Of a DNA stretch of 8,355 nucleotides, positions 111 to 6,188 are shown piece after piece. A model generated the notes under the pieces. It did not search any database. It had not been told where the DNA came from and saw only the letters and a program-made list of their open reading frames with translations. Numbering within the stretch: the first letter of the stretch is position 1; each line of letters opens with the position of its first letter. A program made the translations under genes and the position numbers. Source of the DNA: a virus; the UHGV virus genome UHGV-0366079, one strand, 5' to 3'.

Positions 111-539
111 ATGAGTAGAAATAACGAAACAAGCGGCGTTGAACTGGTTGTTGTAGGCGTATTTGCTTTCTGTCTGGCAGTTGTTGCCTGGCTAATGAAA
201 ACTTTCGATGTTGAATGGCAAACAGCACTGGAAACTGCGCCTGGCCTGATAGTCTGGCTGCTTGTTGTCGGTGCGGGGATCTTTTTCGGGATCAAAATGG
301 AAACTGGCCTTATTCGCTGGGGTGCTCCACTGGCGATCGCCCTTCTGATTCCGGTATTCAAGCCAATTCTTAAGGAAGCTGCCGGAGTTCGTGAAACGGG
401 TGGGCTGGTTTTCGATGATATGGTTTCGTGGTATGGAACTGGCTGGGGAATGTCTCTGATGTTCTTCGGGATTCTTATTGTCGGATATGGCCTGCTTTAT
501 GGTGGCACAGAAGAAATTCATATTACTGGTAATCAATAA
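111..539 (+). CDS. Hypothetical small integral membrane protein, 142 aa, about 4 predicted TM helices
   Basis: ATG at 111 with AAAGGA 8 nt upstream. Four hydrophobic stretches (about aa 12-29, 44-61, 70-84, 112-132). First gene of a tight 3-gene cluster. No family recognised. Confidence 0.6.
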   Translation: MSRNNETSGVELVVVGVFAFCLAVVAWLMKTFDVEWQTALETAPGLIVWLLVVGAGIFFGIKMETGLIRWGAPLAIALLIPVFKPILKEAAGVRETGGLVFDDMVSWYGTGWGMSLMFFGILIVGYGLLYGGTEEIHITGNQ

Positions 540-560
540 AACGTAGAAGAGAGGAAACAT

Positions 561-836
561 ATGAAACTGAATCCTGAGAAATACAATAGAAACATTACCC
601 TGCTATGTCCTGTGTGCGGAAATACAGAGATGGAACACGAGGAAGAGTCTGAAGTCGTTAGATGTGTAGGCTGCGGGAAAGAATTTACTAATGATGAGTT
701 AATCCAAGAAAACGGGGTGAGTATTGACGCTCATGTAGATGAAATAAAAGAAGAGTTAACAAAAGACATTCAAAAACAGTTTAACGACATGCTCAAAAAG
801 GCATTTAAGGGAAGTAAGAATATAAGGATCAAATAA
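561..836 (+). CDS. Hypothetical zinc-ribbon protein, 91 aa
   Basis: Strong SD GAGAGGAAA 6 nt before ATG 561. CPVC (aa 16-19) and CVGC (aa 35-38) form a C4 zinc-ribbon signature; charged helical C-terminus. Starts 21 nt after the upstream stop. Confidence 0.6.
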   Translation: MKLNPEKYNRNITLLCPVCGNTEMEHEEESEVVRCVGCGKEFTNDELIQENGVSIDAHVDEIKEELTKDIQKQFNDMLKKAFKGSKNIRIK

Positions 837-1315
837 TGACAACAAGTGATGCCATCGCTTTAGCTGCGCTTGTAGTATCGATTTACACTATCATATCGTC
901 AGAAATGAAATCGAGAAAAAGCGATAGAGAACAAAAGGTTATAAAGGATGAGCAAGACAGGTTACGTAAGTTGCTTCTGGAAAAAGAAACAAAGTCAGCA
1001 ATTAATGAGATGAAAGCTGAGCTTGGTGCTCGCCTCGTAAAAATAGCCAAAAACAACTATAGGCTCAAGATATTTAATAGAGGGAGAGTTGAGGCTAAAA
1101 ATATAGAGATTCATTTCCCTGATAACGATGGAAATGAATATCTTTCAATGCATGATGTAGAAGATAAATTTCCATATGAGGTATTACACCCGCAACATGG
1201 AATTGAAATTTTAGCGGGAATAAGCTTTGGAAGTAAAACTAAATACCGAATAAAACTCATATGGGATGACAATTATAAAAGAAGAAATGAAGAGGAGTTT
1301 TTCATTTCTATATAA
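836..1315 (+). CDS. Hypothetical membrane-anchored protein, 159 aa: N-terminal TM helix, charged coiled-coil-like segment, C-terminal domain
   Basis: ATG 836-838 overlaps the upstream stop TAA 834-836 (TAATG, translational coupling); AAGGA about 10 nt upstream. Hydrophobic aa 5-22, then a K/E/R-rich helix. Visibly AT-rich. No family recognised. Confidence 0.6.
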   Translation: MTTSDAIALAALVVSIYTIISSEMKSRKSDREQKVIKDEQDRLRKLLLEKETKSAINEMKAELGARLVKIAKNNYRLKIFNRGRVEAKNIEIHFPDNDGNEYLSMHDVEDKFPYEVLHPQHGIEILAGISFGSKTKYRIKLIWDDNYKRRNEEEFFISI

Positions 1316-1344
1316 ATTGGTTCGCACAATGACGTTATGCTAAA

Positions 1345-1383
1345 GAGGCCGCTGCGGGATTCGATTTTCGCAGCGGCCTTTTC
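1345..1383. terminator. Rho-independent terminator ending the plus-strand 3-gene operon, possibly bidirectional
   Basis: 11-bp GC-rich stem aggccgctgcg (1346-1356) / cgcagcggcct (1369-1379), 12-nt loop, then TTTT (1379-1382). Sits 30 nt after the stop at 1315. A-rich on the 5' side, so it may also act on the minus strand. Confidence 0.55.
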
Positions 1384-1412
1384 AACATAACGAGTCGTAC
1401 ATTATGCGCACC
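1381..1412 (-). other. dif-like XerC/XerD recombination site with an 11-bp central region (candidate phage att site)
   Basis: Minus strand reads GGTGCGCATAA TGTACGACTCG TTATGTTGAAA. E. coli dif as I recall it is GGTGCGCATAA TGTATA TTATGTTAAAT. XerC arm 11/11, first 4 central nt identical, XerD-like arm 9/11 if a 5-nt longer spacer is allowed. The XerD-like arm abuts the terminator stem. Confidence 0.5.
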
Positions 1413-1450
1413 AATAGTAAGGATGGCGGGAACTGGCGTTACCGGTGCCG

Positions 1451-1684
1451 TCATTGGTCACAGACCGTAATCCACTGGCCCAGGACGTCTTTCAGGCAAT
1501 GTTGGCATAAATCCAGTTTTAAGCGATTACTGTCACCAAAAATTGAACCGTATCCAGCTAAGTGATTAACAGACAGAAACTCATTGAACTCAATGTCATC
1601 TACCACCGTCTTCGCATGGCGACCACAGCGATCGCAGGTCTTCGCACATAACATTACAGTATCGCTGGATGTGAAAAATTGCAT
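1451..1684 (-). CDS. Hypothetical small Cys-rich (putative zinc-binding) protein, 77 aa; phage cargo candidate
   Basis: ATG at 1684..1682 with strong SD GAGGAGA 5 nt upstream. Cys at 13, 17, 20 and CQHC at 61-64 suggest a zinc ribbon. Same strand as the phage genes, downstream of gIV. Confidence 0.6.
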   Translation of the reverse strand: MQFFTSSDTVMLCAKTCDRCGRHAKTVVDDIEFNEFLSVNHLAGYGSIFGDSNRLKLDLCQHCLKDVLGQWITVCDQ

Positions 1685-1755
1685 TTTATCTCCTCGTAAT
1701 GCTGCCGCGCCGAATCAGCAATAACGCTAAAAAAACAGAATTGTTCGGCTTGGCC

Positions 1756-1800
1756 AACCCCTGACACTAACAAAAGCAAGTTTTGTTAGTGTCAGGGGTT
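1756..1800. repeat. Perfect 20-bp inverted repeat with 5-nt loop (hairpin/cruciform); candidate packaging signal, origin hairpin or operator
   Basis: aacccctgacactaacaaaa (1756-1775), loop gcaag, ttttgttagtgtcaggggtt (1781-1800): exact reverse complements. Begins 2 nt after the stop of the 102-aa ORF. The minus-strand T-run lies about 20 nt beyond the stem, so it is not a classical terminator. Confidence 0.8.
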
Positions 1801-1801
1801 A

Positions 1802-2110
1802 TCATATAAACCAATAGACCGTCCTTACGCCATTCTGGTTATCAATAACATAGCCGCATTGTTTCCTTAAAAATTCTTCTGCTAAATCAATGGCTTTTAC
1901 AGAAATCTCATAAGAAGGAAGTAAAGTGTATCCTTTCCCTTCACTGGCAGCTGCTTTGATCGCATCCAGAGTATTATCAATCAGTAACAGAGCAAGTGAT
2001 GCTTCATTTACCTGAGCCGAAGAACTTCTGGCTGCAAGTGTCATTGTTTTTGCTTCTTCCGCTGTAATCGTTCGTTCTGCCAGAGCAGATAAAATCCCAT
2101 AAGAATCCAT
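1802..2110 (-). CDS. Hypothetical protein, 102 aa; phage cargo candidate directly downstream of gIV
   Basis: ATG at 2110..2108 with GGGGT about 6 nt upstream. Helical N-terminal half, beta-like C-terminus. No family recognised. Co-oriented with the phage genes. Confidence 0.55.
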   Translation of the reverse strand: MDSYGILSALAERTITAEEAKTMTLAARSSSAQVNEASLALLLIDNTLDAIKAAASEGKGYTLLPSYEISVKAIDLAEEFLRKQCGYVIDNQNGVRTVYWFI

Positions 2111-4547: not shown

Positions 4548-4889
4548 TTAAATCACCCTGTTTGCATAATCAAGAAACTTTTGTTTTAAATCGAAAACAA
4601 AAACACTGATACGAGTAACCATAATAACGTTAACACACGCCTGAAAATGGTCAGGCAATACAGACGCCATTAAATGGGAGAAATCAGCAGGTAAACCGTT
4701 ATACATGACCTCAGCAAGGTACTGCATTAAAAGCGTAACAGTTGTTGTAATTAATGCGACCAATGCAAAGGCGATTAATCCTGTTCTGGTAGCAAGTCGA
4801 GCTAAAAAACTCGCCACATAGCCAATAAACAAAGGAACAAGACCAATAAGAAAACGCAACAATGCAGGAATACCTAATAATAAAGGCAT
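4548..4889 (-). CDS. VI: Filamentous-phage pVI minor coat protein
   Basis: [14 protein letters not shown]... hydrophobic, about 113 aa, similar to M13 pVI as recalled (LLGIP.LLRF, FD.KQK). ATG 4889..4887 overlaps the gIII stop TGA 4891..4889 (TGATG); AAGGGGGTGA RBS upstream. The track start at 4892 is a GTG one codon upstream. Confidence 0.85.
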   Translation of the reverse strand: MPLLLGIPALLRFLIGLVPLFIGYVASFLARLATRTGLIAFALVALITTTVTLLMQYLAEVMYNGLPADFSHLMASVLPDHFQACVNVIMVTRISVFVFDLKQKFLDYANRVI

Positions 4890-6151
4890 CACTCACCCCC
4901 TTTGCGAAGCAATGAAGTTAAAGAAGTAAAGACATACCAGAACGTAAGGCAATAAAAAACCCATGAAAGAACATCTTTAATAGTCAGTAATTTATCGCAA
5001 CCAATATCAATCTGATAAACCTCACCGGGAAAAATAATAAAATCAGAGCAGCCGTTACCATTGGGTAAATTAGGCAGCATAGCACCTTTATTTAAAAACG
5101 CTTCCCATAAAGCACCGTGAGAATCCTTTTCAATTCCCAATTCAGAATCAGCCAAAGTAGAAGCGCCATCTAATTCAGAGTCGCCCTTTCCATAACGAGA
5201 ATCACCACCTGAAGGGTCAGCAAAACGGCCAGCCCCCCGCGTAAGATTGTTAATGGAATCGTCAAGACGATTTATATTATTCCTGGTTTGTTCATCGGCA
5301 TTTTTTTTATCATCTGATGAAGTGTCTTTCTCCGTTAATTTATCATGAATATCGCTGGCTATTTTGGGTGAAGCACCTTCGATCGCAGACTGAATATCAC
5401 CTTTAGAAAGACTGGAACCACTAGAGCCACCGCCAGAACTACCGCCAGAACTACCGCCACCGGACTCACCACCGCCAGACTCACCACCACCGGACTCACC
5501 ACCGCTGGACTCACCACCGCCAGACTCACCACCACCATTTTGGGGGGTTGAGGGTTTATCAGAGGGGTCAGCTACAGCACCTGTAGGCTTCCATGTTGCA
5601 GCGCAAACAGTACCATCACCCTGACAAACAATGACACCAGTAGCCTCATATTCACAGCCGTTATAGTAGATATAGCGACCACCATCATATGAATCAACAT
5701 TATTAAATACACCTTCTTCTGGCGGCTTCGCTTCACAAATTTCTTCTGGTGTCGGGTCAGTAGGTTTTTCATCAGGAACAGAACGCTGAATATTACCAAC
5801 AATATAAGCCGTTAAAGACCAATATTTATCCTTCTGCCCTGGTGAATCGCTGTAAGTACAATCGCCAGTAAAAACAAGACGGAATTCAGAATCAGGCCAG
5901 ATACCCTCATAAGTTGGTTTAATCCGAGTAAATACACTCTGAGCACTGGATTTAGCACCCTGACAAGCGGAGGCCTGCATAGCAGCATCAATATAGTAAA
6001 CCGTTATCTTAGAGCCATCCTGATTGGTTATTTGCTTACTTTCAGCGTAGGCAGAACTTTGATAAGTGGATTTAGTAATGCTTTCCCATGACTCAGCATG
6101 TGAAAAAGGAGAAATGAGGACAGCGGAAAGAATTAATATTTTCCTTCTCAT
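4889..6151 (-). CDS. III: Filamentous-phage pIII adsorption protein: divergent N-terminal domain, N1 (TolA-binding)-like domain, Gly-rich linker, C-terminal membrane anchor
   Basis: Start set at ATG 6151 ([19 protein letters not shown] signal peptide); the track extension to 6295 overlaps gVIII and the terminator. [26 protein letters not shown] resembles M13 N1 (YEGCLWNATGVVVCTGDETQCYGTW); GGGES repeats; C-terminus CDKL...FWYVFTSL resembles M13 CDKI...FMYVFSTF. 420 aa. Confidence 0.85.
5424..5536 (-). repeat. Tandem 15-nt repeats encoding the Gly/Ser/Glu linker (GGGES units) of pIII
   Basis: Plus strand shows iterated ggactcaccaccgcc / agactcaccaccacc units, translating on the minus strand to [39 protein letters not shown]. 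Confidence 0.8.
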
Positions 6152-6160
6152 AGTAACCCG

Positions 6161-6188
6161 CTTTAATAAAGGGGCAACGAGTGCCCCT
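6161..6188 (-). terminator. Intrinsic terminator between gVIII and gIII
   Basis: Minus strand AGGGGCA-CTCGT-TGCCCCT (7-bp GC-rich stem, 5-nt loop) followed by TTTATT, 10 nt after the gVIII stop. Ff phages carry a terminator at this position (established knowledge). Confidence 0.6.

Follow-up and report, generated by a model that had tools for sequence, protein, structure and literature searches.

Two questions are raised by gene III of the filamentous phage genome UHGV-0366079: what stands ahead of the TolA-binding domain in its attachment protein, and which receptor that part of the protein could select. The window analyzed here, that is, the whole stretch of 8,355 nucleotides, carries gene III on the minus strand. 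The initial annotation had placed at 5590-6151 a single N-terminal domain of roughly 170 residues, unrelated to the receptor domain of M13, ahead of an N1-like segment at residues 190-260. Based on the translation of the gene, which is colinear with pIII of IKe, I2-2 and PEar6, we arrive at a different map:

4889..6151, minus strand: gene III (pIII/G3P attachment protein), 420 aa plus stop
6095..6151, minus strand: signal peptide, aa 1-19, cleaved before ESWES; in the alignment it matches the 19-aa signal peptide annotated for IKe pIII (NC_002014 2082-2138)
5768..6094, minus strand: IKe-type pilus-binding domain (PBD, PF21443), aa 20-128, from matches to PF21443 and PDB 4EO0
5567..5764, minus strand: N1-type TolA-binding domain, aa 130-195; matched by 4EO1 over 130-195 and by fd N1 (1fgp) over 137-193
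5411..5566, minus strand: Gly/Ser-rich linker with GGGES repeats, aa 196-247, from the sequence and Tandem Repeats Finder
4892..5410, minus strand: C-terminal (CT) domain with a hydrophobic anchor of 24 residues, aa 248-420, from alignment to the CT domains of f1 pIII (8b3o, query 196-417) and of IKe
6165..6187, minus strand: hairpin GGGGCA-ctcgt-TGCCCC followed by a T-run, read from the sequence; it separates the stop of gene VIII from the start of gene III

The start codon is the ATG at 6151, which lies 47 nt past the stop of gene VIII and just after the GC-rich hairpin and its T-run. A longer open reading frame, extended mechanically up to 6295, was ruled out as gene III because it overlaps gene VIII. 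The hairpin probably works as an attenuating terminator between genes VIII and III, and an annotated stem-loop is found in the same place in IKe (2031-2050); the scan of the window for consensus promoters and terminators did not report the hairpin at 6165-6187. In E. coli UM146, RefSeq names the same gene "attachment protein".

In three independent comparisons that agree with one another, two characterized domains account for the N-terminal part of the mature protein. In a phmmer search against the PDB sequences, the best two matches were the IKe G3P structures, adjacent and non-overlapping on the query, with the pilus-binding domain (4EO0) aligning to residues 20-128 (E 3e-26) and the TolA-binding domain (4EO1) to residues 130-195 (E 4e-25). 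The Pfam family PF21443 ("G3P, pilus binding domain") matched residues 22-125 over profile positions 2-105 of 105 with 89.3 bits (E 2.2e-25), thus passing its gathering cut-off of 27 bits over the full profile, and PF05357 covered residues 135-176. The AlphaFold2 model of residues 20-195 reached pLDDT values of 76-87 in the first domain and was of low confidence in the N1 part (50-66). Its only strong fold match in the PDB was 4EO0 (Foldseek E 3.5e-8), and the first domain has the IKe-type G3P fold. The PBD contains two cysteines, C63 and C98, which are invariant across the alignments with IKe, I2-2 and PEar6, and N1 contains four (C139, C166, C176 and C183), with a short Pro-rich linker of 12 residues ahead of it. 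The order of PBD, N1/TolA-binding domain, single Gly-rich linker and CT anchor is that of IKe.

A domain other than the N2 of M13 is indeed present ahead of N1, as the initial annotation had it, with a size of about 109 residues (aa 20-128) instead of roughly 170. The interval 5590-6151, described there as one domain, corresponds to aa 1-187 and comprises the signal peptide, the whole PBD, the Pro-rich linker and 58 of the 66 residues of N1. N1 itself occupies aa 130-195, and the segment 190-260 that had been assigned to it is mostly Gly/Ser linker. A single novel domain over aa 1-187, unrelated to anything characterized and followed by an N1-like domain at aa 190-260, would explain the general impression of something non-M13-like before N1 and nothing more. 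Considering that aa 20-195 are filled by the domains of 4EO0 (20-128) and 4EO1 (130-195), and that aa 196-247 form a Gly/Ser repeat linker, this reading is hardly tenable. The IKe-type layout, with an order that is the reverse of M13, was recognized correctly, since pIII is colinear with that of IKe, I2-2 and PEar6 over its full length. The same alignment makes the layout of pIII ordinary: the N-terminal domain, which had been put forward as remarkable, aligns over its whole length, and in the same order, with a characterized pilus-binding domain, the one crystallized from IKe.

At the DNA level, the Gly/Ser-rich linker is a 15-nt tandem repeat with 6.5 copies at 5441-5537 and a 30-nt super-period (Tandem Repeats Finder). 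The length of pIII varies with the copy number of this linker in otherwise identical prophages, from 430 aa in UM146 to 420 in the window and 414 in a replicative form from Salmonella. The GGGES copy number has been found to differ among UPphi strains, and most of the strain-to-strain variation in g3p was reported in the Gly-rich linker (PMC7307601). Besides, many database entries for gene III are frameshifted fragments (P0002, P0004, P0005, P0008-P0010 and P0012), which probably arose through misassembly of tandemly repeated prophages.

The first domain has no counterpart in the pIII of the F-specific phages. The fd N1 structures 1fgp, 1g3p and 1tol aligned to residues 137-193 or 137-224, and full-length f1 pIII (8b3o) only to 137-224 and 196-417 (phmmer); no PDB chain containing fd N2 aligned to residues 20-128 even at E values up to 1. 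A BLASTP comparison with fd N1-N2, for which the fd sequence was entered by hand, gave an E value of 0.77 only, and in Foldseek 1g3p matched the model over only 61 columns with 48% identity, a match that corresponds to N1. No N2 homologous to fd residues 87-217 follows N1. The claim that the first domain is unrelated to the M13 receptor domain thus holds as far as comparisons of sequence and fold can tell, the PBD being without likeness to fd/M13 N2 in either, and the "reversed order" comes from another kind of domain standing at the N terminus rather than from homologous domains changing places.

The resemblance to the IKe group extends from end to end of pIII, with an overall identity of 54% to IKe, I2-2 and Erwinia phage PEar6. 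By domain, the identity to IKe pIII is 47% for the PBD, 73% for N1, 56% for the linker and 52% for the CT domain (65% in its last 75 residues). Identities of the other virion and morphogenesis proteins to IKe are 60% for pVIII, 52% for pVI, 66% for pI and 72% for pIV. The replication proteins behave differently: pII is only 20% identical to that of IKe and pV gave no match, which fits a replication module (window 6644-8067, minus strand) foreign to the IKe lineage and a genome that is a mosaic, given morphogenesis genes at 52-72% identity. This mosaic structure has been published, with UPphi genes II and V being more than 85% identical to those of Ypf-phi (PMC7307601).

Proteins with a PF21443-type domain form a small and architecturally uniform family. 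Within the INPHARED collection, such a domain is confined to IKe, I2-2 and the PEar phages. When 1.84 billion representative proteins were scanned exhaustively with HMMER, only three further full-length relatives emerged, with PBD identities of 49% (P0020), 40% (P0021) and 35% (P0022). In this set the family comprises about six subtypes that are 25-56% mutually identical, and the domain order is the same in all full-length relatives found. Two additional candidates with 10-13 matched stretches (P0023 and P0024, repeat proteins) were rejected as low-complexity false positives on reading their sequences. Word-indexed protein searches, run with the PBD by itself and with a profile of five sequences, gave for the most part fragments that were truncated or frameshifted, and no full-length IKe-like proteins; they did yield a variant with 83-86% identity.

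Two members of the family deserve a separate description. In P0021 (521 aa), the Gly-rich linker between N1 and CT is replaced by an insert of about 150 residues, which contains Cys and a second "GC.Y" motif and may be an extra receptor-binding domain. A 14.5-kb "plasmid" of a urinary E. coli from Taiwan (pCREC572-6, NZ_CP183160.1, positions 1-14488) is a head-to-tail dimer of an IKe-like genome of about 7.2 kb per unit and carries an extra zinc-ribbon ORF. In its pIII, the PBD is 83-85% identical to those of IKe and I2-2, with 97% for N1, and the element looks, from its sequence, like the replicative form of an undescribed Lineavirus.

The PBD was more diverged than N1 in every pair compared, and the most diverged domain of pIII in most pairs. 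Between IKe and PEar6, identities are 54% for the PBD, 85% for N1 and 90% for CT. The window and P0022 share 35% in the PBD and 76% in N1, while a second UPphi subtype found in E. coli (APEC E19057) is 83% identical to the window in the PBD, 88% in N1 and 92% in CT. This pattern makes the PBD a plausible specificity module, as the initial annotation had suggested for the N-terminal domain. Of 5426 E. coli genomes, 55 contained DNA coding for the PBD, 48 of them with an identity of at least 95% and 6 with 80-90%.

Nei-Gojobori estimates for the window and the 84%-identical UPphi variant gave a dN/dS of 0.13 for the PBD and 0.03 for N1, from which it follows that the PBD is functional and under purifying selection, being about four times less constrained than N1. 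For IKe (2139-2465) and I2-2 (5032-5358), whose PBDs are 91% identical, the same method, on few substitutions, gave 1.7 for the PBD, 0.09 for N1 and 0.18 for CT. Here the PBDs differ by ten amino-acid changes, with synonymous changes almost nil. This difference may reflect positive selection on receptor binding, on small counts and between two phages that both reportedly use N/I2 pili. In the close pairs of both lineages, substitutions cluster at aa 44-49, 68-87 and 94-97; aa 68-87 form the C-terminal half of a long helix and the loop that follows it, so that the variable clusters fall there and in neighboring loops. These three segments can be regarded as a candidate contact surface. For studies in search of the receptor, the piece to use would be aa 20-128 and not the Gly-rich linker.

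The window represents one complete genome unit, circularly permuted relative to the UM146 prophage, since its position 8355 joins position 1 seamlessly in that prophage and the prophage ends at window 1398-1415. The six-frame ORF list gave, in addition to gene III, the following genes, so that the complete inovirus core set lies on the minus strand:

8067-6973, minus strand: gene II
6961-6644, minus strand: gene V
6440-6198, minus strand: gene VIII
4892-4548, minus strand: gene VI
4547-3453, minus strand: gene I
about 3445-2180, minus strand: gene IV
111-1315, plus strand, and 1451-2110, minus strand: five accessory ORFs

Chromosomal prophages of E. coli, including those of UM146 and ECONIH2, are 98-99.6% identical to the window across 100% of its length, and 47 of 5426 complete E. 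coli genomes (about 1%) carry at least 80% of it. A circular Salmonella enterica "plasmid" of 7938 bp is 99% identical to the window and evidently represents, judging from its sequence, the replicative form of the phage. The near-identity to dif-integrated prophages of Enterobacterales, the IKe-like morphogenesis genes, the GGGES repeats in g3p and the dif-like site identify the window as an inovirus of the UPphi type, a filamentous prophage of E. coli. The UPphi viruses (UPphi901; Shapiro and Putonti 2020, Virus Evol) were described with IKe-like morphogenesis genes, integration at dif and GGGES repeats in g3p, with two genes of unknown function where IKe has its intergenic region, and with ECONIH2 as a named carrier (PMC7307601). 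Urinary and extra-intestinal E. coli commonly carry the prophage. In UM146 it adjoins hipBA, and some carriers hold many tandem copies, with 15-17 prophage places in EC5502.

The canonical dif site of E. coli was not found in the window with up to 3 mismatches, and a looser search gave a diverged site. Two dif-like sites are present:

1320-1346, plus strand: dif-like site GGTTCGCACAATGACGTTATGCTAAAG, inverted relative to the second site
1385-1412, minus strand: dif-like site GGTGCGCATAATGTACGACTCGTTATGT, inverted relative to the first site

Between them lies a GC-rich hairpin (about 1347-1381), and the UM146 prophage junction at window 1398-1415 corresponds to the XerC arm of dif. Inverted dif-like sites together with a hairpin recall the folded single-strand attP of CTXphi. 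The segment at window 1310-1418, which holds the sites and the hairpin, also matches many large plasmids of Klebsiella, E. coli and Pantoea at 86-99% without an annotated feature, and may be either an Xer site that phage and plasmids have in common or what is left of a phage that had integrated into plasmids.

None of the five accessory ORFs had a Pfam or PADLOC match above the cut-offs. The ORF at 561-836 encodes a zinc-ribbon protein (RefSeq "ECs_2282 family") and the one at 111-539 resembles a multi-pass membrane protein. In two related loci (L006 and L007), the equivalent slot holds an AbiJ-like abortive-infection gene and an HTH regulator, and in the Salmonella replicative form it holds a death-on-curing toxin, which marks the slot as a position for swappable cargo. 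Those two loci (L006 4794-6399 and L007 4128-5733) are a UPphi variant from two sequencing runs in which pIII is truncated at 257 aa and a shortened Zot/pI ORF (297 aa) overlaps and directly follows it. A deletion thus appears to have removed the part of gene III that encodes the C terminus, together with gene VI and the beginning of gene I, and the variant is presumably a defective or helper-dependent element.

Considering the domain map and its evolutionary pattern together, we conclude that gene III very probably encodes an IKe-type attachment protein made of PBD, Pro-rich linker, N1, one Gly/Ser linker and CT, with the PBD acting as the specificity module and a conjugative pilus as its likely receptor. 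In IKe p3, D1 binds the pilus and D2 binds TolA (PMC6431161), and the phage uses the tips of IncN/IncI2 pili for attachment (PMC7911639). By analogy, the N-terminal domain would capture the tip of a retractile pilus, retraction of the pilus would let N1 reach TolA in the periplasm, and entry would be mediated by the C-terminal domain. The receptor would most likely be a conjugative pilus, the type of which is not readable from the sequence. The partner of IKe at the pilus tip is itself undefined at the molecular level, with no cross-link to TraC seen (bioRxiv 10.1101/2022.07.29.501992), and Shapiro and Putonti could not establish new UPphi infections (PMC7307601).

The plasmids of the carriers give some indication of the pili available to the phage. 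In five E. coli carriers (SCU-118, E1, MB51, ECONIH2 and HUM3355), the 10 typed plasmids were IncF, IncC, IncHI2 or small mobilisable ones, with IncF in all five. No IncI, IncN or IncI2 plasmid was among these 10, in a small sample whose enumeration is perhaps incomplete and for a prophage whose carriage needs no lasting receptor. A receptor other than the F pilus, as proposed by the initial annotation, is plausible from the type of its first domain, and F-like pili stay among the candidates because the sampled E. coli carriers mostly have IncF plasmids.

The suggestion of the UPphi authors is that pili of the IncI1 complex are bound, which would make the PBD a second binder of I pili, unrelated to the N2 domain of If1. 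All four E. coli that carried UPphi901 in the original study had an IncI plasmid (PMC7307601), and the Salmonella strain with the free 7.9-kb phage circle also carries a conjugative IncI1/B/O plasmid of the MPF_I type. Against these associations stand the lack of IncI among the typed plasmids, subject to the same incomplete enumeration, and a background frequency of the I-complex gene pilN of 731 in 5426 genomes; besides, the authors' argument treats IKe and I2-2, which use IncI2, as users of IncI in general. We regard IncI1 as an unlikely receptor on this evidence.

The same fold and family as the IKe domain would suggest that the PBD still recognizes, as in IKe, the pili of P-type (VirB-like) transfer systems, for example those of IncN and IncI2, which are used by both IKe and I2-2 with their 91%-identical domains (PMC7911639). 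However, the identity to the IKe domain is only 47%, at which the specificity of IKe is not transferable to the UPphi PBD and the ligand may differ completely. The PEar phages, a third subtype with 54% identity to IKe, infect Erwinia amylovora, from which it appears that subtypes of the PBD go with different hosts, and neither plasmid type was seen in the sampled carriers. Retention of the IncN/IncI2 specificity is, in our estimation, improbable.

A receptor that is not a conjugative pilus would be a chromosomal pilus or surface structure common to E. coli, Salmonella, Klebsiella, Citrobacter and Yersinia, the five genera in which near-identical UPphi phages have been reported (PMC7307601), or else entry would proceed mainly through TolA alone. 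EC5502, with its many prophage copies and no plasmid found, could be taken as a further sign of this, which is weak because the next accession is simply absent from PLSDB. Conjugative pili are, however, used by all characterized members of the family, and the purifying selection on the PBD shows that the domain is not vestigial, which makes a non-conjugative route quite unlikely. We still favor a conjugative pilus as the receptor. Whether the UPphi subtype of PF21443 recognizes a pilus or receptor that is new to the filamentous phages of this family, for instance the IncI1 pilus or a chromosomal structure of Enterobacterales, can only be answered tentatively: we consider this conceivable and on balance doubtful. 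If true, the small PF21443 family would amount to a rapidly evolving cassette for specificity, in which the receptor is set by the variable helix-loop surface (aa 44-49, 68-87 and 94-97).

Compared with the G3P of the Ff phages (M13/fd/f1; 1G3P, 2G3P, 8B3O), the protein described here shares a homologous N1 (TolA-binding) and CT domain, and it would share the same two-step logic of binding the pilus first and TolA afterwards. In Ff, however, the F-pilus-binding N2 follows N1 and there are two Gly-rich linkers, whereas here the PBD comes first and there is a single Gly-rich linker. The G3P of If1 (2X9A, 2X9B) keeps the Ff order, with N1 followed by an N2 that binds I pili, and is without a PF21443 domain.

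The closest known system is the G3P of IKe (Lineavirus; 4EO0 and 4EO1; PF21443 and PF05357), the architecture of which was crystallized in 2012. In the structures of Jakob et al. 2012, the domains reportedly fold independently and the PBD is said to have a "unique fold". Compared with IKe, the linker is shorter here and built of GGGES and not of GGDT/GGST repeats, and the UPphi-type phage is temperate, integrating at dif, and has an unrelated replication module. With the UPphi viruses (PMC7307601) the window shares the GGGES-repeat g3p, a pair of genes of unknown function past gene IV and accessory ORFs in reverse orientation next to the dif-like site, and it differs from them in nothing substantive. 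Overall, the architecture was already known from the IKe structures, from a Pfam family of its own and from the RefSeq annotation, and the phage group was published in 2020, with its g3p compared there with those of IKe and I2-2. The assignment of g3p at the level of domains (PBD, N1, linker and CT) is absent from that study, and a corrected domain map for UPphi g3p is what the present analysis adds.
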